Source: Chlamydiota bacterium
GTDB lineage: Bacteria; Auribacterota; JACPWU01
Assembly: GCA_016196885.1 (NCBI GenBank)
Contig: JACPWU010000004.1
Location: 6,235-38,234 of the forward strand
Length of the DNA stretch: 32,000 nt
Reading direction: 5' to 3'
Part shown: positions 8,251 through 26,570 of the stretch, in pieces
How the letters are laid out: each line of letters begins with the position of its first letter
How positions within the stretch are numbered: position 1 is the first letter of the stretch
Notes under the pieces: model-generated
Database searches by the model: none
What the model saw: only the letters and a program-made list of their open reading frames with translations
Told to the model about the DNA's origin: nothing
Program-made: the position numbers and the translations under genes

Positions 8251-8435
8251 TAGAGCGCATTTCTCATCACATTTCTGCTGCTCTTCTCCGATTCCGCCTC
8301 GTCTCTCCGTGCAGACTCGGTCGGCCACGCTCAACATACTGTAAAGTATGCCTCGCATGGCACGGAGCGTCTTCCTCGCATCCAAAGCGGACTCAGGCGT
8401 TCCTCGCGACGAAATCTGATGAGAAATGCGAGCTA
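8251..8435. mobile_element. MITE-like palindromic element, copy B (185 bp), intergenic
   Basis: It aligns end to end, in the same orientation, with 638-822, with about 17 differences including two compensating 1-nt indels. Its termini are tagagcgcatttctcatca and tgatgagaaatgcgagcta. It lies 70 nt upstream of the cyclase start. Confidence 0.6.
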
Positions 8436-8460
8436 GAGGGGGTAGAAGTTCCGGGTCTGT

Positions 8461-8520
8461 ACCTCCCCCAACCCCTCCTCAACGAATAGCCCCTTTGGGG
8501 TACAAAGGAGGGGAGACTGG
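8461..8520. repeat. C-tract/G-tract palindromic repeat (possible bidirectional stem-loop)
   Basis: In acctcccccaacccctcctc...ccccTTTgggg...aggagggg, cccctcct (8472-8479) pairs with aggagggg (8506-8513), with a nested cccc/gggg hairpin. It is related to the elements at 12797-13170 and 20470-20567. Confidence 0.5.
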
Positions 8521-12792: not shown

Positions 12793-12796
12793 GATT

Positions 12797-13170
12797 TCTA
12801 ACTCCCCCAACCAGACTGTCCGAAAATTTCCCTCCCCCTTGCGACCGAGCCGGGTGCCGCAAAGCGGCCGGCGAGGAAGTGGTCGGAGCCCGTCAGGGCG
12901 CAAACCATGGGGAGGGTTAGGGAGGGGGTGGATTTCTAAAATCAAATATCAAAAATCAAAAATCAAAATGACAATGTAAAATTTAAAATGTTTCTGGATT
13001 CTAAGCATATATAAAATTTTGCATTTTGGTATTTACATTTTGATTTTTGATATATTTTCCACCCTCCCCTAACCCCTCCCATCTAGGGAGGGGAAAAACA
13101 GCATTTTCGGCCCAGCCTGCGGTACCTCCCCTCTTATTTTTTAAGAGGGGACAGAGGGGAGTTAATTCTC
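12797..13170. repeat. Giant imperfect palindrome that occupies most of the 12793-13315 intergenic region (12797-13170)
   Basis: Outer arms: taactccccc (12799) pairs with ggggagttaa (13157). G-rich tggggagggttagggagggggtgg (12908-12931) pairs with ccaccctcccctaacccctccc (13059-13080). AT-rich tandem ATCAAAA arms at 12938-12985 pair with 13024-13056. The centre is near 13000. Local hairpins are cccctccc/gggagggg (13073-13093) and cccctctta/taagagggg (13128-13150). Confidence 0.7.
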
Positions 13171-13239
13171 CTTAAAGTATTCAAACATAGAACCCGAAAG
13201 AGAGACCCAATGTCAAGCAGGGAATCATTACATTTTATA

Positions 13240-13268
13240 TTGAAACTCTGGATGGGATTCGATATGAT
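13240..13268 (+). promoter_or_regulatory. Candidate sigma70-type promoter of the cytochrome oxidase operon
   Basis: TTGAAA (13240-13245), a 17-nt spacer, then TATGAT (13263-13268). SD aggagg (13303-13308) lies 7 nt before the GTG at 13316. Confidence 0.4.
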
Positions 13269-13315
13269 TCGGGCTCTTTTTAGAAATTAAACCCTTTAAA
13301 AGCAGGAGGCGGGCA

Positions 13316-14023
13316 GTGAAAAACGCAAGATCATTTTTGTTGGGTTTGGGGCTTATGATGATGGTAGGGCAGTCCTTGGCCTTGGGAGCAACTTTAACAG
13401 GAAAGGTCCATTTAGAGGGAACCCCTCCTCCCCAGGAAAAAATTAAGATGGATGCAGACCCGGTGTGTCAAATGCAGCATAGCTCGGATGTTTTTGCCGA
13501 GAGATGGGTGGTGAATGGGAATGGGACCCTTCGCAATGTTCTCATCTATATAAAGGAAGGATTGGGCGATAAAACTTTTCCTGCCCCCAGTGAGCCTGTG
13601 GTTCTGGATCAGAAGGGATGCCAGTATCATCCCCATGTCATGGGAATTCAGGTGGGTCAGACTTTGAAAATCGTCAACAGCGATGACACATTGCACAATG
13701 TTCATGGGAAAACCAAAGAAATGTCGCTCTTTAACTTGGCCATGCCCTTTAAAGGGTTGGAACTGGAACAGAAATTTGAAAAGGCAGACATGATTAAATT
13801 TGTGTGTGAAGTTCATCCTTGGATGGCTGCCTATGCAGGGGTATTTAATCATCCTTTTTTTGCGGTCTCGGGGGAGGATGGCAGTTTCGAAATTAAGAAT
13901 TTGCCTGCAGGGACTTATGGGGTTGAGGCCTGGCATGAAAAGTTGGGCACTCAGACTCAGAATGTGACCGTGACAGAGACAGATTCTAAGGCTGTGGATT
14001 TTTCTTTCAAGGTGACTGAATAG
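13316..14023 (+). CDS. Secreted cupredoxin (type-1 copper) domain protein with a C-terminal carboxypeptidase-regulatory-like beta domain
   Basis: It has a signal peptide (MKNARSFLLGLGLMMMVGQSLALG). Cu ligands follow the plastocyanin/azurin pattern: HNVH...C-EV-H-PW-M (FVCEVHPWMAAY). This is followed by GEDGSFEIKNLPAGTYGVEAWH. It sits directly upstream of coxB. Confidence 0.6.
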   Translation: MKNARSFLLGLGLMMMVGQSLALGATLTGKVHLEGTPPPQEKIKMDADPVCQMQHSSDVFAERWVVNGNGTLRNVLIYIKEGLGDKTFPAPSEPVVLDQKGCQYHPHVMGIQVGQTLKIVNSDDTLHNVHGKTKEMSLFNLAMPFKGLELEQKFEKADMIKFVCEVHPWMAAYAGVFNHPFFAVSGEDGSFEIKNLPAGTYGVEAWHEKLGTQTQNVTVTETDSKAVDFSFKVTE

Positions 14024-14029
14024 TTTTTT

Positions 14030-14052
14030 CTGAACGCTAGACGCTGAACGCT
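14030..14052. repeat. Tandem 7-mer block (GAACGCT/AGACGCT x3) abutting the coxB start
   Basis: The sequence ctgaacgctagacgctgaacgct is the reverse complement of the AGCGT(A/T)C unit used at 22881-22912 and 24067-24099. Confidence 0.6.
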
Positions 14053-14721
14053 ATGTTGAATTGGTGGCTTCCAGAAGGTATTTCAACCTACAGTGGCAAG
14101 GTGGATGGTATTTTTTACATCATCTTGGCCATCACGGGTCTCATGTTCTTTTTGGTAGAAGGGGCCATTCTTTTCTTTTGCCTTCGCTATCGTCATACCC
14201 AGCACGCGAAAGCCACTTTTGTAGAGGGGAATACCAAGCTGGAAGTGATTTGGACATTGATTCCAGCTGCAATTCTCATTTTCCTGATGTTTAAAAGTCA
14301 AGGGGTGTGGAGCGAGATGAAATCTCACATGCCCGCGAATCCGGATCTTCACATCGAGGTGACGGCTCAACAATTTGCCTGGAATATTCATTATCCGGAC
14401 TCCGAAGTGACCACCTTGAATCAATTGCATATCCCTGTCGGGAAAAAAGTTTTAGTGCAAGTGACCTCAAAGGATGTCATTCACAGTTTTTTTATTCCTC
14501 AATTTCGCCTGAAGCAAGATGCGGTTCCGGGTTCTAAAATCAATGTCTGGTTCGAAGCCACTCAAGTGGGCCATTACGAGCTTGTGTGCGCGGAGTTTTG
14601 CGGTCTTGCGCATTATCGGATGAGGGGCTATTTGAAAATTGAAACACCTGAGGAATTTCAGGCTTGGCTCGACCAGTCTAAGAAAGAAGCCGAGAAGAAG
14701 GGGGACGAGGATGAGTGGTAA
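14053..14721 (+). CDS. ctaC: Cytochrome c oxidase subunit II (CuA, no fused cytochrome c domain)
   Basis: It has two N-terminal TM helices and the CuA site HSFFIP...CAEFCGLAHYRM. Confidence 0.9.
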   Translation: MLNWWLPEGISTYSGKVDGIFYIILAITGLMFFLVEGAILFFCLRYRHTQHAKATFVEGNTKLEVIWTLIPAAILIFLMFKSQGVWSEMKSHMPANPDLHIEVTAQQFAWNIHYPDSEVTTLNQLHIPVGKKVLVQVTSKDVIHSFFIPQFRLKQDAVPGSKINVWFEATQVGHYELVCAEFCGLAHYRMRGYLKIETPEEFQAWLDQSKKEAEKKGDEDEW

Positions 14722-14726
14722 GGACA

Positions 14727-14791
14727 GTCGTGAGTTGTGAGTCGTGAGGGGTGAGTTTCTTAAAAACAGTTATGAGTCGTCGGTCGTGAGT
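14727..14791. repeat. Two direct blocks of tandem TCGTGAG-like 7-mers between subunit II and subunit I genes
   Basis: The blocks are gtcgtgag-ttgtgag-tcgtgag-gggtgag-ttt (14727-14759) and gttatgag-tcgtcgg-tcgtgag-ttt (14769-14794). They are in direct, not inverted, orientation. Confidence 0.6.
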
Positions 14792-14805
14792 TTTAGAGGA
14801 ATAAA

Positions 14806-16431
14806 ATGAAATCGTTCATGCACAAATATGTCTTTTCCACTGATCATAAAATGATCGGTTTGCAATTTCTTTTTACCGCCTTTCTTTTCATGCTGTTTGG
14901 AGGCCTTTTGGCCATGGCCATCCGATGGCAATTGGCTTGGCCTGGGACAAAATTGCCTGTTCTGGGGGTGATCATGCCTGAAACCTACAATGTTATTTTT
15001 ACCATGCACGGCACCTTTATGATTTTCTTTGTGGTCATTGCCATCATGGTGGGTGCCTTTGCGAATTTCACGGTCCCTCTTTTAATTGGTGCGCATGACA
15101 TGGCTTTCCCAAAAATCAACATGGCCTCTTATTGGCTTTTCTTCATCTCTTGTGTGATTATGTTGGCCAGTTTTTTTGCTCCAGGAGGCGCTGCGGCGAC
15201 AGGTTGGACGGCTTATGCCCCTGTGAGTGTGAAGGCTCCGATGGGACAGTCCTTATGGTTGATCAGCCTGATTGTTCTGGGCGTTTCATCCATTTTAGGT
15301 TCGTTAAATTATTTGACCACGATTGTGAATTTACGTGCACCGGGCATGCATTTTTTTAGAATGCCCATGACGGTTTGGGCCATTTTCATCACGGCGATTC
15401 TGGTTCTTCTCGCAACGCCTGTTTTAACAGCGGCTTTGGCCATGCTTCTTTTGGACAGAGTCTTGGACACTACCTTTTTCTTGGCCGGAACTGGACAACC
15501 CGTTCTTTGGCAACATGTGTTTTGGTTTTATTCTCACCCGGCTGTTTATATTATGATTTTGCCGGCCATGGGAATTGCTTCTGATGTTCTCTCTGTTTTC
15601 TCACGCAAACCTCTTTTTGGATATCATGCCATGGTTTATGCGCTGAGTGCGATTGCAGGATTGGGCTTTATTGTCTGGGCACATCACATGTTCGCAACGG
15701 GGTTGAATCCAACTTTGGGAACTACCTTCATGGTGGCGACCATGTTTATTGCAGTTCCCACGGGCGTGAAGATTTTTAACTGGTTGGGGACGCTTTGGGG
15801 AGGTTCCATCCATTTTTCATCTGCTATGCTGAATGCGATTGCTTTTGTGTCCATGTTTGTCATTGGCGGTTTGAGCGGGGTTTTTTTGGCCGCTGCTTCT
15901 CTCGATATTTATTTGCATGATACTTATTTTGTGGTCGCGCACATCCATTATGTTCTTTTTGGCGGCAGTCTTTTTGGTATTTTTGCGGGGATTTATTATT
16001 GGTATCCCAAAATGTTTGGCCGCATGATGAATGAAAAATTAGGCAAGATCCATTTCTGGCTCACGTTTGTTTTTTACAATCTAACCTTTTTCCCCATGCA
16101 TATCATCGGGATTCATGGGATGCCGCGGCGATTCTACGATTACAAACAATATGAATTTTTAAGAGGCTTGGAACCCTTGCAGCTTCTGATCTCCATCAGT
16201 GCCTTTGCCCTTTTTATTTGTCAGCTTCCGTTTGTGTATAATTTCTTTGTGAATCTTTTTGTTGGGAAAAAAGCGCCCAACAATCCTTGGCAGGCCAATA
16301 CGCTTGAGTGGACGATTCCCTCGCCCGCGCCTCATTTGAATTACGCTAAAGTCCCCATCGTATATCGCTGGCCTTATGAATACAGCTTGCCCCATGCCAA
16401 AGAGGATTGGCTGGCGCAGGATCAACCGTGA
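14806..16431 (+). CDS. ctaD: Cytochrome c oxidase subunit I (heme-copper oxidase, A-type)
   Basis: The 541-aa polytopic protein carries WFYSHPAVYIMILP, WAHHMFATG and VVAHIHYVLFGG, which are the heme a/a3-CuB ligands. Confidence 0.95.
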   Translation: MKSFMHKYVFSTDHKMIGLQFLFTAFLFMLFGGLLAMAIRWQLAWPGTKLPVLGVIMPETYNVIFTMHGTFMIFFVVIAIMVGAFANFTVPLLIGAHDMAFPKINMASYWLFFISCVIMLASFFAPGGAAATGWTAYAPVSVKAPMGQSLWLISLIVLGVSSILGSLNYLTTIVNLRAPGMHFFRMPMTVWAIFITAILVLLATPVLTAALAMLLLDRVLDTTFFLAGTGQPVLWQHVFWFYSHPAVYIMILPAMGIASDVLSVFSRKPLFGYHAMVYALSAIAGLGFIVWAHHMFATGLNPTLGTTFMVATMFIAVPTGVKIFNWLGTLWGGSIHFSSAMLNAIAFVSMFVIGGLSGVFLAAASLDIYLHDTYFVVAHIHYVLFGGSLFGIFAGIYYWYPKMFGRMMNEKLGKIHFWLTFVFYNLTFFPMHIIGIHGMPRRFYDYKQYEFLRGLEPLQLLISISAFALFICQLPFVYNFFVNLFVGKKAPNNPWQANTLEWTIPSPAPHLNYAKVPIVYRWPYEYSLPHAKEDWLAQDQP

Positions 16432-16443
16432 AAATACTATCAA

Positions 16444-16519
16444 CAGTCCACGGTCCATCGTCCATAGAGATAAATGATTCCTTTAAAACTGTGGACCATG
16501 GACTGTGGACCATGGACTG
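16444..16519. repeat. Inverted repeat built from tandem GTCCA(T/C)G units
   Basis: The left arm is cagtccacggtccatcgtccat (16444-16465). The right arm is ctgtggaccatggactgtggaccatggactg (16489-16519). The loop is about 23 nt. It lies between ctaD and the ctaA/ctaB fusion. Confidence 0.7.
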
Positions 16520-16533
16520 GTTGTAGGTTTTGA

Positions 16534-18480
16534 ATGGACGACACAAATCTTAAAATCTTTTCTTTGGTGGGGCTTCATCGCTTCCTCAAATTTACAGCCG
16601 TTGCGACCTTTTTTCTTTTATGTGCAGGGGCCTTGGTGACGAGTACGGGATCGGGCCTGGCAGTGCCGGACTGGCCGCTTTCCTACGGGCAGTTTTTTCC
16701 GCCCATGATCGGCGGGATTCTCTACGAGCATGGCCACCGCATGATTGCAGGGTGTGTGGGGATTCTCGCCTTTGTTCAAGCGGTCTTGCTTTTTTTGAAG
16801 GAGCCCAGGCGATGGGTGAGGGTCGTGGGGATGGTCGCCTTTCTTGTGATTGTTCTTCAAGCGGTATTGGGCGGCATGACGGTTCTTTTCCTTTTGCCTC
16901 ATGCTGTTTCAATCAGCCACGCCGGCTTGGCCGAAATCTTTTTTTCTCTCATGGTGAGTTTGGCTCTTTTCACCTCGCCCCGTTGGAAGAGTTCCGTGGA
17001 ATCTGGCCCGAGTGTAGGAGAGGCTTTTTCGAATGAACTTTCTCTCAAACAAGGGAAGGTTCGTCTCCGGTTTTTAAGTACTGCGGTCACGCTTTTGATT
17101 TACGTTCAAATTCTTTTGGGTGCTTTTTTTCGCCATACGGGTTCTGGGATTTTGGCTCATATTTTGGGTGCAAGTGTTGTCACACTTGGAATCGGTTGGT
17201 TGGTTTCTCATGTCTTAAAAAAGTATTTTTATGAGCGCCACCTTTTGAAGTTGGCGTTGACTCTGATGTTTCTTTTAATTTTGCAATTGCCTTTGGGGGT
17301 GGCTTCTTACTGGATCAAAATGGCGACTCTCGATTTGGATCAACCGCATCCTTTGAAGGTAATTTTGACTGCCGTACATTTAGCCTTGGGCGCTTTGATG
17401 TTGGCGACCTCTCTAGTTTTGACATTGTGGGCTTTTGCGAAGGATTATTCGGTGTCGGGTCCTGTCCCTCCTCACCCCCATCGACGGCATCAGTCTCGTC
17501 ATGGTTTTTTTCAAGGAATGTCCAGGATTTTGTCTCGACTTGCTGGCGTTCGATGGGGGGCCCCCAGTCGGGCCACCCGACATGAGCGTCCTTTCAAAAA
17601 AATCTCCAATTATTTTGAAATGACCAAACCTAGAATTGTCATGATGGTTCTAGTGACAACCGCCATGGGCTTTTGTCTGGGCAGTTGGGGAGCCTTTAAT
17701 TTTGCCCTTCTTTTTCAGACCCTTTTGGGAACAGCTCTGGTGGGTGGGGGGGCTTGTGTACTCAATGAATACATTGAAATAGATGCAGATGGATTAATGA
17801 AAAGAACCTGCTCCAGACCGCTTCCTGCAGGTAAAATTGAACCCCCCAAGGCACTTCTCTTTGGAATCATGCTTTCAATTTTAGGAATTTTGCATTTGGT
17901 TTTTTGGGTGAATCTCTTGACCGGAATGTTGGCTTCTTTGACCTTGGTCAGTTATATTTTTATTTATACTCCTTTGAAGAAAAAAACCACTCTTTGTACG
18001 TTGATGGGGGCCATTCCCGGTGCTATTCCTCCCGCGATGGGTTGGGCAGCTGCCAGAGATCATTTAGGGGGTGGGGCATGGATTCTTTTTGGTATTTTAT
18101 ATATGTGGCAGCTGCCTCATTTTTTGAGTTTGGCAGGAATTTACAGAGAAGATTATCAAAGAGGAGGTTTCCAAATGTTACCCGTTTTGGATAAGGATGG
18201 GAGATTGACGGGACGTCAGATCTTACTTTATACTGTCGCTTTAATGTGCGTGAGTCTGGTTCCCACGTTGCAAGGGTTAACGGGCGCAGTCTATTTTTTT
18301 GGAGCCTTAGCGTTAGGTTTTATTTTTTTGGGAGTTGGGGTGCGTTCTCTTTTCCCAGCTCGCAGGAGTGGGAAAGAAGATTCAGCGGTCCAATTGCTTG
18401 CGGTTTATCGGAAACTTTTCCGTGTGTCTATTTTGTACTTACCACTTTTGTTGGTTTTGATGTGGGTGGATAAAATTTAG
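16534..18480 (+). CDS. ctaA-ctaB: Fused heme A synthase (CtaA/COX15, N-terminal) and protoheme IX farnesyltransferase (CtaB/CyoE, C-terminal)
   Basis: The N-terminal half has LAVPDWPLSYGQ, YEHGHRMIAG and AVSISHAGLAE (COX15 pattern). A basic His/Arg-rich linker (PHPHRRHQSRHG...) follows. The C-terminal half has YFEMTKPRIVMMVL, NEYIEIDADGLMKRTCSRPLPAG and WQLPHF (UbiA-type heme O synthase). Confidence 0.85.
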   Translation: MDDTNLKIFSLVGLHRFLKFTAVATFFLLCAGALVTSTGSGLAVPDWPLSYGQFFPPMIGGILYEHGHRMIAGCVGILAFVQAVLLFLKEPRRWVRVVGMVAFLVIVLQAVLGGMTVLFLLPHAVSISHAGLAEIFFSLMVSLALFTSPRWKSSVESGPSVGEAFSNELSLKQGKVRLRFLSTAVTLLIYVQILLGAFFRHTGSGILAHILGASVVTLGIGWLVSHVLKKYFYERHLLKLALTLMFLLILQLPLGVASYWIKMATLDLDQPHPLKVILTAVHLALGALMLATSLVLTLWAFAKDYSVSGPVPPHPHRRHQSRHGFFQGMSRILSRLAGVRWGAPSRATRHERPFKKISNYFEMTKPRIVMMVLVTTAMGFCLGSWGAFNFALLFQTLLGTALVGGGACVLNEYIEIDADGLMKRTCSRPLPAGKIEPPKALLFGIMLSILGILHLVFWVNLLTGMLASLTLVSYIFIYTPLKKKTTLCTLMGAIPGAIPPAMGWAAARDHLGGGAWILFGILYMWQLPHFLSLAGIYREDYQRGGFQMLPVLDKDGRLTGRQILLYTVALMCVSLVPTLQGLTGAVYFFGALALGFIFLGVGVRSLFPARRSGKEDSAVQLLAVYRKLFRVSILYLPLLLVLMWVDKI

Positions 18481-18488
18481 GAGATACT

Positions 18489-19088
18489 ATGAGTCATGCG
18501 GCAACAGCGAGTGATGTAAAGGGTTTGAGCCATCCCCTGGGGGTCAACAATGCGAAATTGTGCATGTGGCTTTTTTTGTGTTCAGAGGTGATGTTTTTCG
18601 CAGGATTGATCGGATCTTACATCGTGCTTCGGCTGGGAAGTTTGACTTGGCCGACCCCGGGCGAGATTCTCAACATCCCTCTGACAGGGGTCAATACGTT
18701 TATCTTGATTTGCAGCAGTGTCACCATGGTAAAGGCCTTCGCCTGGGCGCACATGGGAAATCAAACCAAGATCAAAAGGCACCTTTTTCTAACCTTTCTT
18801 TTTGGCGTGATCTTTCTTTCGATCCAGGCCATCGAATATTACAAGTTGTATCATCATCATGGGTTACATCCTTCGGGCAATCTTTATGGGACCTGTTTTT
18901 ATATCCTTACAGGCTTTCATGGCTGCCACGTTTTGGGAGGGGTGATTGCAGTCTTTGTTCTTTGGATCCGGTCTTTGTTGGGACATTTTACAAAGGGGCG
19001 TCATGCCCCGGTTGAATTGGTGGGGCTTTATTGGCATTTTGTGGATTTGGTGTGGATTATTTTATTTACGATTGTTTATTTGATATAA
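18489..19088 (+). CDS. ctaE: Cytochrome c oxidase subunit III
   Basis: The 199-aa five-TM protein carries FFAGLIGSY, GFHGCHVLGGV and YWHFVDLVWI. Confidence 0.9.
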   Translation: MSHAATASDVKGLSHPLGVNNAKLCMWLFLCSEVMFFAGLIGSYIVLRLGSLTWPTPGEILNIPLTGVNTFILICSSVTMVKAFAWAHMGNQTKIKRHLFLTFLFGVIFLSIQAIEYYKLYHHHGLHPSGNLYGTCFYILTGFHGCHVLGGVIAVFVLWIRSLLGHFTKGRHAPVELVGLYWHFVDLVWIILFTIVYLI

Positions 19089-19104
19089 TCTCTTCGGGAG
19101 ATTC

Positions 19105-19392
19105 ATGATGGACCAGGAAAAAGTTGAAAATTTCACGCATCCCAATTATGTTGCAGTTTGGATATGGCTTTTGGTTTTAACGGTGTTGGAGGTCTGTGCC
19201 CTTTATTTGCCTTGCGCCAAGGTTGTAAAAATTTCCGCATTGGTATTTTTGGCCATTACGAAGGCTCTTCTTGTGGCCATGTATTTTATGCATCTTAAAT
19301 TTGAGCGCTTGGTTCTGATCGCAGTGATTGTTTATCCTGTGGTTTTATCGTTGGTGTTGACCCTTCTCACGCGTCTAAGTCTTAAGATCTAA
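19105..19392 (+). CDS. ctaF: Cytochrome c oxidase subunit IV (prokaryotic COX4_pro family)
   Basis: The 95-aa three-TM protein has a KALLVAMYFMHLKFE motif. It sits immediately after subunit III. Confidence 0.75.
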   Translation: MMDQEKVENFTHPNYVAVWIWLLVLTVLEVCALYLPCAKVVKISALVFLAITKALLVAMYFMHLKFERLVLIAVIVYPVVLSLVLTLLTRLSLKI

Positions 19393-19411
19393 CGCTATTT
19401 CGGGCAATCCC

Positions 19412-20053: not shown

Positions 20054-20466
20054 GTTTCATCCCTCTTTCCATTTTCCCAAAGTTAAATGCTTCTTTAAAT
20101 GCGACTTCGGCGTGTTTTCTCCTGGCGGGATATATTCTGATCCGCAAAAAGAAAATTTCGGCCCATCGTTTTTGCATGCTGGGCGCTTTAATCGTTTCTT
20201 TCGTCTTCCTCATTTGTTATCTTTATTACCATGCGCATCATGGCGTGACCCGGTTTCAAGGTCAGGGATGGCTTCGACCTTGTTATTTTTCGATTCTCAT
20301 TTCGCATACGGTTTTGGCGGTGCTTGTTTTCCCTATGGCGCTTGTGACGGTCTATCGGGCCTTTAGGGAGGATTGGAGTCGCCATAAGCGGTTGGCCCGC
20401 TGGACGTTCCCGATATGGCTTTATGTGTCTATCACAGGTGTGATCGTTTATGCGATGCTTTATTAA
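20050..20466 (+). CDS. DUF420 family membrane protein (CtaM-like, oxidase-associated)
   Basis: The 138-aa four-TM protein carries LNASLNATSACFLLAGYILIRKKKISAHR. It overlaps the SCO gene by 4 nt (ATGA), at the usual position at the end of cta operons. Confidence 0.7.
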   Translation: MSFIPLSIFPKLNASLNATSACFLLAGYILIRKKKISAHRFCMLGALIVSFVFLICYLYYHAHHGVTRFQGQGWLRPCYFSILISHTVLAVLVFPMALVTVYRAFREDWSRHKRLARWTFPIWLYVSITGVIVYAMLY

Positions 20467-20469
20467 CCC

Positions 20470-20567
20470 CTCCATCTCCCCTTAAATTAAGGGGAGGGTA
20501 AAAACATTCCCTTGAGTAAGGGAAACTCCCCTCTTATTTAAGAGGGGTAGGGGGAGTTAGCTTTTTT
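20470..20567. repeat. Cluster of three C-tract/G-tract hairpins (same family as 13125-13166)
   Basis: The three hairpins are ctcccctta-aat-taaggggag (20476-20496), ttccctt-gag-taagggaa (20508-20524) and cccctctta-ttt-aagagggg (20528-20547), followed by tagggggagttagc. The segment ctcccctcttat..taagagggg..ggggagtta is shared with 13125-13166 and, inverted, with 12797-12808. Confidence 0.7.
20524..20567 (+). terminator. Probable intrinsic terminator of the oxidase operon
   Basis: A GC-rich stem (aactcccctctta / taagagggg..ggggagtt) is followed by a TTTTTT run (20562-20567) directly after the last operon gene. Confidence 0.45.
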
Positions 20568-20574
20568 AACAACA

Positions 20575-20603
20575 TTGACCTTCGACAGGTATTTTTCTAA
20601 TAT
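20575..20603 (+). promoter_or_regulatory. Candidate promoter giving a leaderless or near-leaderless transcript
   Basis: TTGACC (20575-20580), a 17-nt spacer, then TAATAT (20598-20603). The ATG at 20610 lies only 6 nt downstream and has no SD. Confidence 0.4.
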
Positions 20604-20609
20604 GAACTC

Positions 20610-20855
20610 ATGAAGTATTTACGCAATATTATTTTCATCGTGACTTTTTCCCTGCTTGAAAAAAGCTTTGCCTGGTCTTGTCCTAACTGTAAAGATTTTT
20701 TAGCAACCGAGAGTGCCAGCGCTTTGGCTCGGGGATATTATTGGAGTATTTTGATGATGGTGTCTCTTCCTTTTGTGCTCGTGGGAATGATTTCCTTTTT
20801 GATTTTTTTGAATGTTCGTTCAAAGAGAAAACTTAGCACGGAAGATCCTCTCTAA
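20610..20855 (+). CDS. Small membrane protein with signal/anchor, CPxC motif and one C-terminal TM helix (unknown function)
   Basis: The sequence is MKYLRNIIFIVTFSLLEKSFAWSCPNCKDF...YYWSILMMVSLPFVLVGMISFLIFLNV. The coding call rests on the ORF, the promoter geometry and its membrane-like composition only. Confidence 0.4.
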   Translation: MKYLRNIIFIVTFSLLEKSFAWSCPNCKDFLATESASALARGYYWSILMMVSLPFVLVGMISFLIFLNVRSKRKLSTEDPL

Positions 20856-22134
20856 ACATTTGAAAAAGAAAATATTCAATTCCTTCTCTTCTTCTAGAAA
20901 TCCCTGGTTCTTCGTTCCTTCTCTTTATTTTGCTGAGGGGCTTCCCTATGTCTTGGTCAATACGGTCTCGGTGATTCTCTACAAACGTTTGGGGATTGCG
21001 AATGCGAAAATCGCCTTTTGGACAGAGCTCGTTGCCTTTGTGTGGGTTTTTAAGATGTGTTGGGGTCCTCTCGTAGATACACATTCGACCCAAAGAAATT
21101 GGATTGTCGGCACCCAGGGCGTTTTATTCATTTTTATTTTGTTCATTGCTTTTTCACTGAGTCTGACATCTTTCTTTTTATTTTCACTTTTGGCCTTGAG
21201 CGGTGTTGCGTTTTTTTCAGCCACGCATGATATTGCGGTGGATGGCTTTTACTTGCTATCTCTTTCGAAAGAAGAACAGTCCTTTTATGTGGGGATTCGA
21301 TCACTCTTTTATCGAATTGCCATGATCTTTGGTTCTGGAGCGCTGGTGTATACAGCCGGCTCTCTAGAAGCCTCTCTTGGAAATGTGACATTAAGCTGGA
21401 CGGTGGTGTTGATTCTTGCCTCTCTTTTCATGGGTCTTCTTTCCCTCTATCATCGCTGGGTTCTCCCTTTCCCCGATCAAGATGCAATGACGCCTGTCAG
21501 GAGTACTTTTCAAGGGCATCCATTTTTAGAAATTATTTTCTCCTATTTTCGCCAAAAAAAGATAGGGGGGGTGCTCTTGTTTATCCTTCTGTATCGTTTT
21601 GGGGAGGCCATGCTGGTCAAAATGGTTGCGCCCTTTCTGTTGGACAAAAGAGAAATGGGAGGGATGGCTTTAACAACAGCTCAAGTGGGATTGATTTATG
21701 GAACCTTGGGCGTTTTGGGGTTGATTGCAGGTGGGATTCTGGGAGGGATTCTGATTTCAAAGCTGGGTCTTAAAATTTGTATTTGGCCGATGGCCCTGGC
21801 CTTGAATCTGCCAGACCTTCTCTATGTTTATTTGGCATATGTGCATCCCCCTCTTTACTGCGTGGGTTCTTTTATTGTGTTAGAGCAGTTTGGATATGGA
21901 ATCGGTTTCACTGCATTTACTGTTTTTTTAATGCAGGTTTCCAAAGGAAGGTATCCCACATCTCATTTTGCCATTTCAACAGGGATCATGGCTTTAGGAA
22001 TGAGAATCCCTGGGATGGTGAGCGGATATCTGCAACAGGTCTTAGGCTATCCTTTATTTTTCATTGCCGTGTGTTTTGTCACTTTGCCTGGGATGCTGTT
22101 GATTCCTTTTCTTCCACTCGAGGATGGGAAATGA
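20812..22134 (+). CDS. ampG: MFS transporter, AmpG-like (muropeptide permease family)
   Basis: GLPYVLVNTVSVILYKRLGIANAKIAFWTELVAFVWVFKMCWGPLVDT matches the AmpG N-terminal signature (KxxWxPxxD), and there are about 12 TM segments. The ATG at 20812 overlaps the small ORF by 44 nt. An in-frame TTG at 20860 is an alternative start. Confidence 0.7.
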   Translation: MFVQRENLARKILSKHLKKKIFNSFSSSRNPWFFVPSLYFAEGLPYVLVNTVSVILYKRLGIANAKIAFWTELVAFVWVFKMCWGPLVDTHSTQRNWIVGTQGVLFIFILFIAFSLSLTSFFLFSLLALSGVAFFSATHDIAVDGFYLLSLSKEEQSFYVGIRSLFYRIAMIFGSGALVYTAGSLEASLGNVTLSWTVVLILASLFMGLLSLYHRWVLPFPDQDAMTPVRSTFQGHPFLEIIFSYFRQKKIGGVLLFILLYRFGEAMLVKMVAPFLLDKREMGGMALTTAQVGLIYGTLGVLGLIAGGILGGILISKLGLKICIWPMALALNLPDLLYVYLAYVHPPLYCVGSFIVLEQFGYGIGFTAFTVFLMQVSKGRYPTSHFAISTGIMALGMRIPGMVSGYLQQVLGYPLFFIAVCFVTLPGMLLIPFLPLEDGK

Positions 22135-22142
22135 GCAAAGGT

Positions 22143-22877
22143 TTATCTAGAAGAAAACGAACTGATTTTCACTTCTCCCATCAAGAAAGCCCCATCTTCT
22201 AAAATCAAATGCCTCGTTTCAAGGGATCCGAGAAAAACGGCCTTGCTTTTTAATTCTACCGTTTGAGAGGTCTGGATTTTTCCATGGAATTGTCCCGCCA
22301 GGGTGATTCTCTCGACTTTAAATCCTTTTTTAAGATGACATTGGACATGGGATTCTAGAATCAAATGAGGGGCTTGGAGGCCTCCTTCGAAAATGGCCCC
22401 TGCCTTGAGGGTGATCCTCTCTTGCGCGGTGAGTTTCCCAATAAATTTTCCTGCAATGTTAGCCTCTTTGACCTTGGCGGTTGAATTGAGAACTGTGGTA
22501 TTCGTCGGAACGTCGAGCGATCCATGGGTTTCAAGGTCTCGACTGAGCATATCTTTGACATGATAATCTTGAAGGTCATTTCTGTAACCGCATTTCTTGC
22601 ACATGACAGACTGGGCACCCGGAGAAGTTGCAAGCTCCACCTGACATCTAAAGCACGGGACATTTTTATAGGCGATTTCTTTGGTTTGGGTGAGGGCCCG
22701 AGGGTGTAGCGCTTTTTGAATGTCAATCAAGAGATGACATTTGGAACAGAAAATAGAAAGACCGTCTGGGCGAACCTCCTGCAGGCTTTTACAGTGAGGG
22801 CAAGAAAGGGCAACAGTTCGCCCTGTTGCCTTGCGAGGCTGAGCGAGAGGGGCTGGGTTCTTAGGCATGGTATTCAC
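22143..22877 (-). CDS. Bactofilin-domain protein with N-terminal double zinc ribbon
   Basis: The N-terminus has CPHCKS...CSKCH and CFRCQ...CKKCG. The C-terminus has repetitive beta-helix bactofilin/DUF583-like repeats (AKVKEANIAGKFIGKLTAQERITLKAGAIFEGGLQAPHLILE...). The start is either the GTG at 22877 or the ATG at 22868. Confidence 0.65.
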   Translation of the reverse strand: MNTMPKNPAPLAQPRKATGRTVALSCPHCKSLQEVRPDGLSIFCSKCHLLIDIQKALHPRALTQTKEIAYKNVPCFRCQVELATSPGAQSVMCKKCGYRNDLQDYHVKDMLSRDLETHGSLDVPTNTTVLNSTAKVKEANIAGKFIGKLTAQERITLKAGAIFEGGLQAPHLILESHVQCHLKKGFKVERITLAGQFHGKIQTSQTVELKSKAVFLGSLETRHLILEDGAFLMGEVKISSFSSR

Positions 22878-22880
22878 AGG

Positions 22881-22950
22881 ATAGCGTACAGCGTATAGCG
22901 TTCAGCGTACAGAAAAAAATCCCCTCGTTATAAACGGACCGCTGTACGCT
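22881..22950. repeat. Inverted repeat built from AGCGTAC-type 7-mers between the two bactofilin genes
   Basis: The left arm is atagcgtacagcgtatagcgttcagcgtacag (22881-22912). The right arm is ccgctgtacgct (22939-22950) and overlaps the upstream gene's stop codon. Confidence 0.7.
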
Positions 22951-23344
22951 ACTTTCTTGCCTCAACCAATTCATTGAAAGGGGCCTTGGAAAATTTAGAG
23001 ACCACCTCCGATATTTTTTTACCATCGGGATTAACTTCCGATTTCCCGCAGAAAACGACGCCCTCTTCAATGACAAGCCGAGAGGCTTTGATGTCGCCTA
23101 GAAGCTGGGCTTGTGCCTTTAATTCCACTTTGTCTCGAGCGGTGATATTGCCTTGCACTTTTCCTTCAAGGGTAGCGCTTTGAACGTTAATGTCCCCTTT
23201 CACTTCGCCCGTAGGGCCCAGGACAAAGTGGCCTTCAGAAATCACTTGCCCTTCGATTTTTCCGTCCAGTCTCAAGGTGTTGGTAAATTTTAAAGTTCCT
23301 TTTAATTCTACTTCTGCGTTAAGAATATTTTCTTGATTTGTCAT
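22949..23344 (-). CDS. Bactofilin (polymer-forming cytoskeletal protein)
   Basis: LKGTLKFTNTLRLDGKIEGQVISEGHFVLGPTGEVKGDINVQSATLEGKVQGNITARDKVELKAQAQLLGDIKASRLVIEEGVVFCG is the canonical bactofilin repeat pattern. I chose the ATG at 23344 because of a perfect SD (AAGGAG) 6 nt upstream. Confidence 0.85.
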   Translation of the reverse strand: MTNQENILNAEVELKGTLKFTNTLRLDGKIEGQVISEGHFVLGPTGEVKGDINVQSATLEGKVQGNITARDKVELKAQAQLLGDIKASRLVIEEGVVFCGKSEVNPDGKKISEVVSKFSKAPFNELVEARK

Positions 23345-23445
23345 AAATCGCTCCTTGATTTTGATATTTGATTTAAGCACACCGCTTTGGATTTGTCACG
23401 GGAAAAGGGCCTTTTCGCTTGAATCTGCCGATTCTGATGTGATAG

Positions 23446-23525
23446 TGTGCCTACGTACCGATGTGTCAATGTGCCAATGAAAAAAAGATATCATGGCGTT
23501 GGCACATAGGTACATTGGCACAATG
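23446..23525. repeat. Inverted repeat built from TGTGCCAA-type units in the tpx upstream region
   Basis: The left arm is gtgtgcctacgtaccgatgtgtcaatgtgccaatg (23446-23479). The right arm is catggcgttggcacataggtacattggcacaatg (23492-23525). It ends 8 nt before the tpx SD. Confidence 0.65.
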
Positions 23526-23544
23526 TTATAATAAGGAGGTATTT

Positions 23545-24063
23545 ATGTCTCAAGAGAGAAAAGGGGCTGTGACATTTAAGGGAAATCCTCTCACACTCGT
23601 GGGTCCAGAGCTCAAGGTTGGAGCCCAGGCGCCTGAGTTCCAGCTTTTGGCGAATGATTTATCCGTGGTAAATTTGGCCAGTTCAAAAGGCAAGACGCGT
23701 CTTTTTAATGTGGTCCCTTCTTTGGACACGCCTGTCTGTGATTTACAGACGAAGCGTTTCAATGAAGAAGCGGGGAGATTCCCCTCTCAGATTCAGGTTT
23801 ATACGGTCAGTTGTGATCTTCCCTTTGCGCAAGCAAGGTGGTGTGGTCAGGCCAAAGCAGATCGAATTAAATTCCTTTCAGATCATCGTGATCTCTCCTT
23901 CGGTCAAGCCTATGGTCTTTGGATCAAAGAGCTTCGGCTTTTGACCCGAGCGGTGGTCATCGTGGATGCCAATGATAAAGTTTCCTATATTCAGGTGGTT
24001 AAGGAAGTGACGAATCAACCTGATTACGAGGATGTGTTGAATTCTTTAAAGCAGAAGGTTTAA
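23545..24063 (+). CDS. tpx: Thiol peroxidase (atypical 2-Cys peroxiredoxin Tpx)
   Basis: VTFKGNPLTLVGPELKVGAQAPEF...FNVVPSLDTPVCDLQTKRFNEEA...SCDLPFAQARWC is the Tpx signature. I chose the ATG at 23545 because SD AAGGAGG lies at 23533-23539. The upstream 28 codons in the track are hairpin DNA. Confidence 0.9.
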   Translation: MSQERKGAVTFKGNPLTLVGPELKVGAQAPEFQLLANDLSVVNLASSKGKTRLFNVVPSLDTPVCDLQTKRFNEEAGRFPSQIQVYTVSCDLPFAQARWCGQAKADRIKFLSDHRDLSFGQAYGLWIKELRLLTRAVVIVDANDKVSYIQVVKEVTNQPDYEDVLNSLKQKV

Positions 24064-24066
24064 TAG

Positions 24067-24160
24067 AATAGCGTACAGCGGTAAGCGTACAGCGTACAGT
24101 TAAAAAAGTAAGATTTGTTTTTACTGACCGCTGAGCGCTATACGCTGTACGCTTTCTTTT
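24067..24160 (+). terminator. AGCGTAC-unit inverted repeat, probable (leaky) terminator after tpx
   Basis: The left arm is aatagcgtacagcggtaagcgtacagcgtacag (24067-24099). The right arm is ccgctgagcgctatacgctgtacgct (24128-24153). It is followed by ttcttttgg. Only about 10 nt remain before the ATG at 24171. Confidence 0.45.
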
Positions 24161-24170
24161 GGAATGAATC

Positions 24171-25841
24171 ATGAATAAATCTAAGCTCTTACGAGATCTT
24201 CTCCATCGTCCCGGCCCCGTTTTAGTGACCGGGGCCCATGATGCGATGAGTGCCAAGCTGATTGAAGAAGCGGGTTTTGACGGCATTTGGGCGAGCGGCT
24301 TTGGCATCTCAGCCGCCCAGCGCTGCCTTCCGGACGCCAATTACATGACGATGACGGAAAATCTTGAAATTGCCAAAAACATGAATGAGGTCGTCCACAT
24401 TCCTGTGATTGCGGATTGTGACAATGGCTACGGCAACGCCTTGAATGTGATGAGAACCGTGGCTCAATATGAGAAGGCAGGTATTGCAGGTATTTCTATT
24501 GAAGACAATATTTTTCCCAAAAAGTGCAGTTTCTATCCAGGTTTTAAAAGGGAACTGGTGTCGCTCGAAGAGATGGAAGGAAGGATTCGGGCTGGAAAAT
24601 CTGCTCAGGGGGGGTCAGATTTTGTCCTGATTGCCCGTACAGAGGCCTTGATTGCGGGTTGGGGGATGGAAGAGGCCTTGAAACGGGGTCGGGCTTTTGC
24701 CCGAGCGGGGGCCGATGCTGTTTTGATTCATTCCAAATCTCGAGCCCCCGATGAAGTGATTCAATTTGCAAAATCGTGGGATCAAAATATTCCTTTGGTT
24801 GTGGTGCCGACCATTTTTGATTCCATCAGTGCGGATGAGTTGCACGAGGCCGGTTTTAAAGTGATTATTTTTGCCAATCAGCTGATTCGTTCGTGCATTC
24901 GCTCGATGCGGGAAATGCTGGGGGAATTGCGGCAGAAAAAGTATGCCGGTGCGGTGAATGATCATTTGGTTACTTTGGAAGAGGTTTATAAACTTGTGGG
25001 TGTGGATGAAATGAAGCAGGCGGAAGACACGTTTCTTCCTGTCTCCGGAAATGATGTCAAGGCGATTATTGTCAATGCCGGATTTGAAAAGCATTTGATG
25101 CCTCTCATTGAAGATCGGCCCAAAGGGATGTTGGACATTAAGGGGAAAACCATTCTCGAACGCCAGATAGAGGTGCTCAACGCCTGCGACATCAAGGATA
25201 TTTCAGTGGTCCGGGGTTATCGCTCGGAAGCCATCCGTGTTCCTAATCTTCGCTATTATGAAAATCCAGATTATGAAGAGAGCTATATTTTGTCTTCTTT
25301 CTTTTGTGCGAGCCCCCAGATTCAGGATCGGGTGCTTTTTCTCTATGGAGACATTCTCTTCGACCGTGTGGTTTTGGAGAAACTTTTACAGTCGTCGGCG
25401 GATATTTCTCTCGTGGTTGACCTGGCTTGGTATGATGCCCATCGCCAGGGTGCTATCCCTGAAGGGCTCGAGCGGGAATTGGTGATGATGGAAGAACCTC
25501 CTCAGGCGACGTATCGTTACCTCCCTTCAGAAGAGAACCACCGCATTTTAAAAATCGGGCAGAATTTGGATCGTAGATCAGCGCATGGAGAATTTATTGG
25601 AATGGCGATGTTTTCTCCCACCGCTTCACAAGTGTTCATTCAAGAATATGAAAGATTGAAAAAGGAAGATCCAGGCGGACCCTTTCATGAAGCGCCTTCC
25701 TTGAAAAAGGCATCGCTCACGGACATGATTCAGGAATTGGTGGATCGTGGATTTCCGGTCAAGGGGGTGGATATCTACAAAGGCTGGATGGAAGTGGATA
25801 CCTTTGAGGATTATCAAAGGGCGTGGGCACAATCGAAATAA
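24171..25841 (+). CDS. pepM: Phosphoenolpyruvate mutase-like domain fused to a C-terminal nucleotidyltransferase-fold domain
   Basis: The N-terminus (GAHDAMSAKLIEEAGFDGIWASGFGISA...PVIADCDNGYGN...GISIEDNIFPKKCS) is of the ICL/PEPM superfamily and closest in pattern to PepM. The C-terminal ~260 aa have a LicC/PntC-like fold (RPKGMLDIKGKTILERQIEVL...YGDILFD). The context is ppd plus an aminotransferase. Confidence 0.7.
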   Translation: MNKSKLLRDLLHRPGPVLVTGAHDAMSAKLIEEAGFDGIWASGFGISAAQRCLPDANYMTMTENLEIAKNMNEVVHIPVIADCDNGYGNALNVMRTVAQYEKAGIAGISIEDNIFPKKCSFYPGFKRELVSLEEMEGRIRAGKSAQGGSDFVLIARTEALIAGWGMEEALKRGRAFARAGADAVLIHSKSRAPDEVIQFAKSWDQNIPLVVVPTIFDSISADELHEAGFKVIIFANQLIRSCIRSMREMLGELRQKKYAGAVNDHLVTLEEVYKLVGVDEMKQAEDTFLPVSGNDVKAIIVNAGFEKHLMPLIEDRPKGMLDIKGKTILERQIEVLNACDIKDISVVRGYRSEAIRVPNLRYYENPDYEESYILSSFFCASPQIQDRVLFLYGDILFDRVVLEKLLQSSADISLVVDLAWYDAHRQGAIPEGLERELVMMEEPPQATYRYLPSEENHRILKIGQNLDRRSAHGEFIGMAMFSPTASQVFIQEYERLKKEDPGGPFHEAPSLKKASLTDMIQELVDRGFPVKGVDIYKGWMEVDTFEDYQRAWAQSK

Positions 25842-25842
25842 C

Positions 25843-25935
25843 GTTCAAAAGTTTAAAAGTTCAAAGGTTCAAAGGAATTTTGAGCTTTGAGGTTTTTACT
25901 TTTGAGCTTTTAAACCTTTGAACCTTTGAACTTTC
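25843..25935. repeat. Inverted repeat built from (G/T)TCAAAG 7-8-mers
   Basis: The left arm is gttcaaaagtttaaaagttcaaaggttcaaagg (25843-25875). The right side is tttgagctttgagg...ttttgagc...aacctttgaacctttgaactttcg (25879-25935). It lies between pepM and ppd alpha. Confidence 0.7.
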
Positions 25936-25940
25936 GTTTT

Positions 25941-26438
25941 ATGACATGTACAACATTGTCGCACGATTTCTGGAAGCAATTGAAGCAAAAAGGTTTTAAT
26001 TTTTTTACCGGCGTTCCTTGTAGTTTTCTAGAAGATTTGATCGCTTGTGTGAGTGAACACGAAAAATATTTGCCCGCCGTCCGGGAAGATGCGGCGATGG
26101 GAGTGGCTGTGGGAGCTTGGCTGGGCGGCAGGAAACCCGTGCTCCTGATGCAAAATTCAGGGCTTGGGGTTTCTTACAATGCACTCACCTCGCTTAACTT
26201 GATTTATAAGATTCCGGTTCTCATGGTGATTTCTCTAAGGGGCTATCAAATTCCGGATGCACCGGAGCATCTCATCATGGGTGCCATCACTCCTCAACTG
26301 TTAGATATCGTTCAAATTCCTTATCGCATTCCCTCTCGAGAAAGTTTGGAAGAAGATTTAGAATTCTGTATCACTCAAATGGAAAAGCAACAAATTCCAA
26401 CAGCCCTTCTCATGAGGAAAGGAATTTTTGGGGGTTGA
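25941..26438 (+). CDS. Phosphonopyruvate (or sulfopyruvate) decarboxylase alpha subunit (ThDP pyrimidine-binding domain)
   Basis: GFNFFTGVPCSFLEDLI...REDAAMGVAVGAWLGGRKPVLLMQNSGLG has the catalytic Glu region of ThDP enzymes of the Ppd/ComD type. I prefer the ATG at 25941 over the TTG at 25926. Confidence 0.75.
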   Translation: MTCTTLSHDFWKQLKQKGFNFFTGVPCSFLEDLIACVSEHEKYLPAVREDAAMGVAVGAWLGGRKPVLLMQNSGLGVSYNALTSLNLIYKIPVLMVISLRGYQIPDAPEHLIMGAITPQLLDIVQIPYRIPSRESLEEDLEFCITQMEKQQIPTALLMRKGIFGG

Positions 26439-26447
26439 ATTAGGGAA

Positions 26448-26557
26448 AATGACCAATATCCAATTTCAAATGTCAAATGAATGACCCATTACTAATCTTC
26501 AATTGGACATTGGTTCATTGGAAATTAATTTGTCATTTGTTATTGGACATTGGTTAT
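26448..26557. repeat. Inverted repeat built from CCAAT/CAAATG-type units between the two decarboxylase subunit genes
   Basis: The left arm is aatgaccaatatccaatttcaaatgtcaaatgaatgaccc (26448-26487). The right arm is caattggacattggttcattgg...tttgtcatttgttattggacattggttatt (26500-26557). Confidence 0.7.
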
Positions 26558-26570
26558 TATCAAGGAGTGT

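Follow-up and report, generated by a model that had tools for sequence, protein, structure and literature searches.

Intergenic repeats with a unit of seven nucleotides have been known since 1990 (PMC4692102, PMC4679880). The subject of this analysis is a stretch of 32,000 nt (hereafter the window) from contig JACPWU010000004.1 of a Chlamydiota bacterium (assembly GCA_016196885.1, positions 6,235 to 38,234), in which ten intergenic loci carry tandem arrays of 7- or 8-nt units, at seven of them as two inverted arrays forming a palindrome. These elements are not a new kind of element but belong to the known class of intergenic heptameric repeats, closest to the short tandemly repeated repetitive (STRR) sequences, the GGGAATC repeats of Xanthomonas, and the TAACTGA repeats of Beggiatoaceae. 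An initial annotation of the window had overlooked this class, including the hairpin-forming and inverted forms already reported for it (PMC2670836, PMC4692102, PMC4679880).

The STRR sequences are, in the strict sense, tandem heptamers of heterocystous cyanobacteria. Their copy number is approximately 100 per family in Calothrix. They go back to Mazel et al. 1990 (as cited in PMC2670836 and PMC4692102), and 7-bp repeats of this type form a hairpin loop between hupS and hupL, for which a role in transcript stability or translational coupling was proposed (PMC2670836). Intergenic regions of Xanthomonas (GGGAATC) and Nostoc (GGGGAYT) are enriched in heptameric simple sequence repeats (SSRs), and convergent plus/minus pairs among these are able to form stem–loops (Rehm et al. 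2015, PMC4692102). In marine Beggiatoaceae, TAACTGA arrays adjoin start codons, and slippage as well as the 7-nt footprint of cold-shock proteins were discussed in this context (MacGregor 2015, PMC4679880). In many genomes, no class of long SSRs is more abundant than the heptamers, for which polymerase slippage was suggested as the origin, according to the summary of Mrazek 2007 in PMC4679880. Heptamer repeats of Nostoc showed effects in reporter assays, and an unidentified partner was proposed (bioRxiv 10.1101/2022.06.06.494920).

The ten loci of the window lie between 12.9 and 26.6 kb and were located with Tandem Repeats Finder (TRF) and by inspection of the sequence (Table 1). The initial annotation had counted at least nine, most of them inverted pairs; every locus that it listed exists at, or within a few bases of, where it had been placed, and the count is now ten, with seven hairpins and three direct-only arrays. 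The period given by TRF is 7 at seven loci and 8 at three. Period 8 applies to TGTGCCAA and to the unit that had been listed as TTCAAAG. At least seven distinct unit sequences are present, mostly AT-rich or mixed in composition.

Table 1. Array loci of the window, followed by further features of the window and of related sequences. Pairs are inverted arrays detected by the repeat finder unless attributed to folding; energies are for the RNA.
Feature	Sequence	Positions	Strand	Context	Array, pairing, and fold
ATCAAAA/AAAATGN palindrome	window	12932-13056	.	divergent spacer, ABC transporter (-) / CarboxypepD_reg-like gene (+)	TRF 12938-12991, period 7, 4.4 copies, 91% matches; pair 12932-13053; 16-nt stretch of arms 100% complementary; −26.5 kcal/mol, z −3.7; nested in G/C-rich palindrome 12910-12932 / 13058-13080
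(CTGAACG)x3.3, direct only; AGCGTNC family, reverse complement	window	14024-14052	+	entire 29-nt spacer, adjoins cox2 ATG	TRF 14030-14052
AGTCGTG, direct only, two blocks	window	14726-14791	+	cox2/cox1 spacer	TRF 14726-14756, period 7, 4.4 copies; no hairpin, z −0.6 (14722-14805)
GTCCAYG/CRTGGAC palindrome	window	16440-16521	+	cox1/ctaAB spacer	TRF 16488-16519 (right arm, 14-mer x2.3, 100% identity); pair 16440-16509; −39.3 kcal/mol, z −5.1
AGCGTAC palindrome	window	22880-22950	-	bactofilin/bactofilin spacer	TRF 22881-22912, period 7, 4.3 copies; pair 22878-22948 (folding); −22.9 kcal/mol (sense strand), z −2.8
AAATCAA direct array, partial ATCAAAA-family copy	window	23353-23377	-	5′ leader, adjoins Shine–Dalgarno sequence of small bactofilin gene	TRF 23355-23374
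TGTGCCAA palindrome, period 8	window	23437-23535	+	tpx leader, ends at AAGGAGG Shine–Dalgarno sequence	TRF 23446-23479; pair 23455-23521; −44 kcal/mol, z −5.9
AGCGTAC palindrome, then TTTCTTTT	window	24065-24157	+	tpx/pepM spacer	TRF 24070-24099; pair 24070-24153; −43.7 kcal/mol, z −6.5
GTTCAAAG palindrome, period 8	window	25843-25935	+	fills pepM/ppdA spacer; ATG at 25941	TRF 25843-25873 and 25901-25931; pair 25840-25934; 20-bp perfect stem (20-nt arms at 25856/25915), then TTTCGTTTT; −40.2 kcal/mol, z −7.1
CCAAT/CAAATG palindrome, period 7	window	26447-26558	+	ppdA/ppdB spacer, ends just ahead of AAGGAG Shine–Dalgarno sequence	TRF 26447-26479, period 7, 4.7 copies; pair 26448-26558 (folding); −38.7 kcal/mol, z −4.6
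G/C-rich palindromes on GGGGAGGG/CCCTCCCC	window	12907-12932 / 13058-13082; 13123-13164; 20464-20559; ~8455-8515
NTP_transf_5-methyltransferase fusion	window	589-2403		RiPP-like gene set
2OG-Fe(II) oxygenase	window	3203-3874		RiPP-like gene set
Transglutaminase-like protease	window	4096-4560	-	RiPP-like gene set
PqqD-like protein	window	4550-4873	-	RiPP-like gene set
Asparagine-synthase-like cyclase	window	6355-8181	-	RiPP-like gene set
Two ABC exporters	window	9210-12945	-	RiPP-like gene set
Inverted arrays, units CAAACGY and GAAACCT	L021	10900-11025, 11480-11595		ppdA/ppdB spacer; after ppdB
tRNA-Met genes	L075	17247-17318, 17415-17491	-	flanked and separated by heptamer palindromes

The arrays are a genuine and statistically strong feature of the window. 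Arrays with a period of 6–9 and at least three copies number 11, against a mean of 0.31 and a maximum of 3 in 200 dinucleotide shuffles, and those with an inverted partner number 8, against 0.135. With the period restricted to 7 or 8, 10 arrays are observed versus 0.14 in shuffles. A set of 71 unrelated loci (765 kb) contains 1.4 such arrays per 32 kb compared with the 10 of the window, and all ten fall within the approximately 10% of the window that is non-coding. The detector initially used (period 6–9 with an inverted partner) was unspecific, yielding 5.6 matches per 32 kb in high-GC control loci, mostly of period 6 or 9 and in coding or GC-rich low-complexity sequence; it was replaced by a final detector for period 7/8 only. 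An assembly artefact was rejected: NCBI, JGI, and Logan assemblies made independently share this architecture, which also recurs at an orthologous position.

As RNA, the seven inverted elements fold with −23 to −44 kcal/mol (z −2.8 to −7.1). Seven of the eight folded spacers are far more stable than their shuffles, the exception being the cox2/cox1 spacer, whose TCGTGAG array had correctly been described as direct only. The stems comprise approximately 20–45 paired bases, and the gaps between the best-matching arms measure 12–46 nt. The loops are AT-rich, as annotated, whereas their length of approximately 20–40 nt agrees only roughly with the 20–30 nt given before. Many pairing registers had been expected, and about half of the hairpins indeed have nearly isoenergetic ones: the element at 25843 features four registers, 8 nt apart, within 3 kcal/mol, the one at 16444 two, and those at 12938 and 26448 several, whereas the hairpins at 23446 and 24067 have a single register. 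The shuffle controls, the density in unrelated loci, the folding, and the pairing registers together confirm the arrays as real.

The elements start 1–15 nt past the upstream stop codon and end a few nucleotides ahead of the next Shine–Dalgarno (SD) sequence or start codon. Their position between co-directional genes was borne out, and Pfam confirmed the identity of the genes. These encode a CarboxypepD_reg-like protein, COX2, COX1, a CtaA–CtaB fusion, COX3, COX4, SCO1, and DUF420; two bactofilins follow on the minus strand; and then Tpx, a phosphoenolpyruvate (PEP) mutase–nucleotidyltransferase fusion (pepM), and the two halves of a phosphonopyruvate decarboxylase (ppdA, ppdB). A strong SD is present at tpx, ppdB, cox1, and the small bactofilin gene, and the elements do reach up to it at tpx and ppdB, as had been noted. 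The genes cox2, ppdA, and pepM are without a recognizable SD after their element. Two elements are located in divergent promoter regions (12932-13056 and 23437-23535). An action of the arrays as frame-independent stop-codon traps was considered and rejected: six of seven spacers leave none of the three frames open, which hardly exceeds what shuffles give.

Several units recur. The unit AGCGTAC is found at three loci of the window (22880, 24066, and, on the minus strand, 14052), and its copies, which align including the A-run after the array, are by this alignment homologous. The unit ATCAAAA is found at two. The nearest relatives of the window are metagenome-assembled genomes (MAGs) labelled Candidatus Auribacterota or 'Chlamydiae bacterium', and the host is thus not a cyanobacterium; the best relatives of its proteins are 76% (PepM) and 83% (COX1) identical. 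One syntenic MAG contig, L075 (JACPWT01; COX1 83% and PepM 74% identical), carries three copies of the ATCAAAA/AAAATGACAA family (6300-6443, 7948-8083, and 12202-12293). The first two of these are approximately 90% identical over approximately 130 nt, loop included, with no target-site duplication visible on their flanks, and one of them contributes, with its left arm, the final codons and the stop codon of an MFS gene. The GTCCAYR family has three copies in L075 as well, one of them in the orthologous cox1/ctaA spacer. By this recurrence within the window and in L075, the units are dispersed families shared between genomes and not truly locus-specific one-offs, and the earlier statement that the loci share an architecture but mostly not a sequence was too strong. 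Conversely, one spacer may hold different families: the bactofilin/bactofilin spacer carries AGCGTAC in the window and an AACCGGnn octamer in L077 and L002, and the ppdA/ppdB spacer carries a different family in each of four genomes. Recent expansion in unit steps is evident from perfect tandem duplicates like the 14-mer of the cox1/ctaAB element, and this fits the slippage origin that the initial annotation had suggested.

The density of period-7/8 arrays differs more than 10-fold among the syntenic related MAGs. Per 10 kb, it amounts to 5.1 in L075, 3.1 in the window, 1.85 in L002, 1.65 in L077 and L078 together, 0.57 in L001 and L079, 0.40 in L076 and L080, and 0 in L081, L082, L083, and L068, with approximately 0.05 in shuffles. 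In the array-free relatives, the orthologous spacers are 1–25 nt long or the genes overlap. The element between cox1 and ctaA stands out: it is identical to L075 2172-2262 at 68 of 87 positions (78%), compared with 38%, a saturated value, at fourfold-degenerate sites of cox1, and the score of its loop similarity to L075 is reached by only 14 of 5000 shuffles. Both observations argue for an orthologous element under constraint. In the two cox spacers, the heptad phase RGTYnnn is kept over three genomes while the other positions vary; the cox2/cox1 spacers of L078 and L075 contain direct arrays in this phase, as does the window. At the tpx/pepM position, canonical terminator hairpins are present in L002, L075, L077, and L082, and the spacer is only approximately 20 nt long in L068 and L083. 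Stabilization, processing, attenuation, and protein binding, the roles considered possible in the initial annotation, are plausible, and among them a terminator-like role at tpx/pepM is the only one that gains support from the comparison of genomes.

The palindrome in the tpx leader adds approximately 60 nt between the inferred −10 box and the SD relative to the spacers of L075, L076, L077, and L002. Upstream of it, in the bactofilin/tpx divergent region, the motif TTTGTCACGGGAAAA (window 23393-23407) is conserved in every relative (L075, L076, L077, L002, L068, and L082) and is followed by a TTGAT(C/T)-N17-TATGAT-like promoter; a promoter element or regulator site is the likely interpretation of the motif. 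Between this promoter and the tpx SD, the window has the TGTGCCAA palindrome. Further observations concern the relatives. In L077 (9999-10312), inverted AACCGGnn octamer arrays surround an insert of approximately 200 nt that holds another palindromic repeat (…TCATTGCGAGG…CGCAATGAC…). Small dispersed repeats are reportedly embedded in heptamer arrays of Nostoc, which the insert resembles. In L078, a Y1_Tnp (IS200/RAYT-like) domain and a DnaA C-terminal domain are combined in one gene (719-1666), which is flanked by an 11-mer tandem repeat (GACCCCATTGT x2) and not by heptamer arrays. In L075, two tRNA-Met genes are flanked, and separated from each other, by heptamer palindromes (GTAGTAA, TTCGGAT) at 17125-17410, so that the elements also occur outside protein operons.

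Compared with the STRR sequences, the window shares tandem heptamers of at least three head-to-tail units, several unit families per genome that recur at many loci, the intergenic and often operon-internal location, and the ability to form hairpins. Its units resemble TTGTCAG and CTGACTA (PMC2408588) and TTCAAAA (bioRxiv 10.1101/2022.06.06.494920) of Nostoc. The differences are the non-cyanobacterial host, the predominance of inverted pairs with long stems, and a period of 8 at some loci. The SSRs of Xanthomonas and Nostoc likewise lie between genes, in most cases flanked by co-directional ORFs and nearer to the upstream one, and vary in length between related genomes. However, they consist of one dominant G-rich, G-quadruplex-forming unit instead of at least seven mostly AT-rich or mixed ones, and in the window palindromy is the rule. 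The TAACTGA arrays, with 2–6 copies, adjoin starts and often replace the SD, as seen at 14024-14052 and 25935-25941, and their phylogenetic distribution is patchy with shorter, repeat-free spacers in relatives. Unlike the elements of the window, they have a single unit, are nearly always direct (one inverted in 170), and no hairpins are predicted for them.

The elements also invite comparison with repetitive extragenic palindromic (REP) sequences, bacterial interspersed mosaic elements (BIMEs), and miniature inverted-repeat transposable elements (MITEs), since they are dispersed intergenic palindromes of 70–130 nt that lie inside operons and are gained and lost between relatives. The hairpin transcripts of REP/BIME and of co-transcribed MITEs (Correia, ERIC) can stabilize the upstream mRNA or be cut by RNase III. 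REPs have one family consensus and are associated with REP-associated tyrosine transposases (RAYTs), and MITEs have terminal inverted repeats and target-site duplications. In neither are the arms tandem arrays. The window has at least seven unrelated units with tandem arrays as arms instead of one palindrome consensus of 20–40 nt, and encodes no RAYT (Y1 transposase); a Y1_Tnp gene is present in the relative L078, next to a different repeat. Its palindromes have inverted arms, and the flanks of the two near-identical L075 copies show no target-site duplication. Intrinsic terminators and stabilizer hairpins are similar in being stem–loops past a stop codon. Yet the stems of the window are built from repeats, most are without a U-tract, several lie in 5′ leaders, and their loops of 20–40 nt differ from the G+C-rich stem, 3–8 nt loop, and U-tract of a terminator. 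CRISPR arrays consist of repeats of 24–48 nt that alternate with unique spacers of comparable length, and cas genes usually accompany them. The units of the window are contiguous, with 7–8 nt and no spacers, and no cas domains are encoded in it. The misfit to REP/BIME, CRISPR, and ordinary terminators asserted in the initial annotation thus stands; nor does Rfam 15 give a match in the window at or above the gathering score.

The preferred reading, to which a probability of roughly 0.6 is assigned, is that of slippage-driven, dispersing repeats for which spacers are the only tolerated place and which are co-transcribed to give long hairpins, a minority of the copies being under selection. Replication slippage would lengthen and shorten the arrays by whole units, as seen in perfect recent duplicates, and the similarity of the arms may be kept by template switching within the palindrome. 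Whole elements are copied to new spacers, as the pair of near-identical copies in L075 shows. They would persist only where nothing is encoded and would for this reason fill spacers from the stop codon to the ribosome-binding site or start. Being located inside transcription units, they are presumably transcribed, and the inverted ones would then fold into long, often multi-register hairpins. The most likely consequences would be 3′-end formation or protection of the upstream cistron, possibly targeting by RNase III, and an effect on the downstream start codon, which would be masked or positioned. Terminator or stabilizer action with an effect on downstream starts is probable. Some copies, such as that at cox1/ctaA, would be selectively maintained, and most would be dispensable and turn over rapidly.

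A number of results weigh against this reading. The first 12.9 kb and the last 5.4 kb of the window contain zero arrays. The terminator scan recovers none of the elements, whose loops are too long for it, and U-rich tails are discernible by eye only at 24065-24157 and 25843-25935. Three loci are direct arrays incapable of forming hairpins, and palindromy therefore accounts for only part of the picture. The asymmetry between strands is weak, with the sense strand folding better in 13 of the 19 elements of known transcription direction; together with 63 G–U pairs on the sense and 36 on the antisense strand of these 19, it hints weakly at an importance of the RNA form. Between the orthologous elements of the window and L075, covariation is limited to one compensatory pair and is uninformative. 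Furthermore, the 78% identity at cox1/ctaA could also stem from members of one subfamily that inserted independently.

The main rivals are a transposase-mobilized MITE-like element, neutral debris, and a protein-binding heptad code. Non-autonomous mobile elements of the MITE/REP type, whose arms would be bound by a trans-acting transposase with the tandem units as binding subrepeats, would account for the L075 copies with their shared unique loop, for the same families at different loci and different families in the same spacers of different genomes, and for the patchy presence among close relatives; a Y1_Tnp gene in the array-bearing L078 and the insert between the L077 arrays can be cited in addition. 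This explanation is nevertheless doubtful. The two L075 copies show no target-site duplication, no transposase domain is encoded in the window according to Pfam, the L078 gene is flanked by a different repeat, and the many unit sequences would call for many specificities of recognition; slippage in situ is what the direct-only arrays and the perfect local duplications suggest. That the arrays are neutral debris, slippage-prone simple sequence accumulating where selection is absent and without effect on expression, is consistent with their confinement to non-coding DNA, with the perfect recent duplications, with the array-free state of several close relatives that have the same operons, and with the commonness of heptamers among long SSRs (PMC4679880, citing Mrazek 2007). 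It is, however, unlikely, given the identity at cox1/ctaA despite saturated synonymous sites, the RGTY phase kept over three genomes and two spacers, and hairpins of −40 kcal/mol that, a few nucleotides from SD-less starts, can hardly be neutral for expression.

Unusually long intrinsic terminators or attenuators would suit the palindrome with TTTCTTTT at tpx/pepM, where relatives have canonical terminators, and the 20-bp stem followed by TTTCGTTTT at pepM/ppdA. As a general explanation this is rather unlikely, since, besides the silent scan and the three loci that are not hairpins, five of the seven hairpins have no U-tract and several lie in 5′ leaders or between subunit genes that need co-expression (ppdA/ppdB). 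A role as platform for a protein that binds single-stranded nucleic acid over approximately 7 nt, e.g., a cold-shock-domain protein, would explain the dominance of period 7, the conserved RGTY phase with a variable remainder, and the direct-only arrays just upstream of a start or SD (14024-14052, 23353-23377), which recall the Beggiatoaceae TAACTGA; inverted pairs would be hairpins meltable by such a chaperone, and termination or intercistronic coupling would respond to the protein level. The idea of one cold-shock protein per heptamer (PMC4679880) and the reporter effects in Nostoc (bioRxiv 10.1101/2022.06.06.494920) lend themselves to it. It is improbable all the same: the units are very diverse, some have period 8, the window encodes no candidate protein, and no single motif stands out because each heptamer unit tested, permuted controls included, gave at least 48 loci in IMG/VR. 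Action at the DNA level, by iteron-like protein-binding arrays or by cruciforms affecting replication or transcription initiation, is very improbable. Palindromes can extrude as cruciforms and two elements lie in divergent promoter regions, but a period of 7–8 is out of phase with the DNA helix, most elements are inside operons just past stop codons, and G–U pairs are more frequent on the sense strand.

The architecture extends beyond the relatives. An Acidobacteria MAG, L021 (JACQTF01, 61% G+C), has the same inverted heptamer arrangement in another phylum and in the same operon (Table 1). Pattern scans of IMG/VR with four heptamer units, two of them permuted controls, returned 48 to at least 120 loci per unit. 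In the 351 IMG/VR loci so obtained (3.0 Mb), 1146 period-7/8 arrays were detected, 31% with an inverted partner, and a single stretch of approximately 10 kb contains up to 20 arrays with up to approximately 10 distinct units. This suggests that many-unit arrays, about one-third in inverted pairs, are very common in IMG/VR contigs; no description of this was found in the literature searched. L289 (9.1 kb), L417 (12.9 kb), and other IMG/VR loci carry heptamer arrays in nearly every spacer, and in some spacers two units stand back to back (AGTAATC, then ACTGACC). GTCCACA palindromes occur in a contig of 70% G+C (L148, L132), one of them flanking a canonical terminator, and L096 contains an AAAATCA-family palindrome. 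A special status of GTCCAYR or of an RGTY core was rejected, as the two permuted control units gave 64 and at least 120 loci versus 48; one of these controls turned out to match a known Nostoc repeat. A trinucleotide test yielded an approximately 2-fold enrichment of TCA/TGA and CAG/CTG that is confounded by how the loci were fetched. Matches of 16-mers of AGCGTAC in IMG/VR were discarded, being at about the estimated chance level and coding in L096.

Other repeats and genes of the window (44.6% G+C) were recorded alongside. A second palindrome family is G/C-rich and built on GGGGAGGG/CCCTCCCC. One pair of it, GGGAGGGTTAGGGAGGGGGTGGA / TCCACCCTCCCCTAACCCCTCCC, brackets the AT-rich heptamer palindrome 12932-13056, resulting in nested palindromes, and CTCCCCTCTTATTT(TTT)AAGAGGGG is found at 13127-13151 and at 20528-20547. 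With four G-tracts, the G-rich arm might adopt a G-quadruplex. An inverted repeat of 26 nt (8250-8275 / 8411-8436, CTAGAGCGCATTTCTCATCACATTTC ...), with 88% complementary arms 135 nt apart, lies in the spacer after the asparagine-synthase-like gene and looks like a different, MITE-like element. The gene set at 589-8181 resembles a cluster for a ribosomally synthesized and post-translationally modified peptide (RiPP) of the lasso-peptide type. CtaA (heme A synthase) and CtaB (heme O synthase) form a single 648-aa ORF at 16534-18480 in the window and are encoded by separate genes in the relatives (L075 2300-4208; L078 11763-13543).

To the intergenic heptamer repeats, the window adds a non-cyanobacterial lineage in which arrays are mostly palindromic and fill operon spacers, together with syntenic relatives that span the range from array-rich to array-free. 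Such a range renders feasible a gene-versus-trait association aimed at the factor responsible. It is a long shot that the arrays act as a cis-code of general use, with the inverted form as a tunable 'sliding' hairpin; the code would be read by the machinery of translation or termination or by a cold-shock-domain-like protein whose footprint on single strands covers 7 nt. If so, multi-register hairpins of this kind would couple or uncouple neighbouring cistrons here and in many phage contigs, and the more than 10-fold differences in density would reflect gain or loss of a trans-acting factor or of a dedicated array-generating activity. The element between cox1 and ctaA, conserved well above the neutral expectation, offers a concrete target for functional tests.

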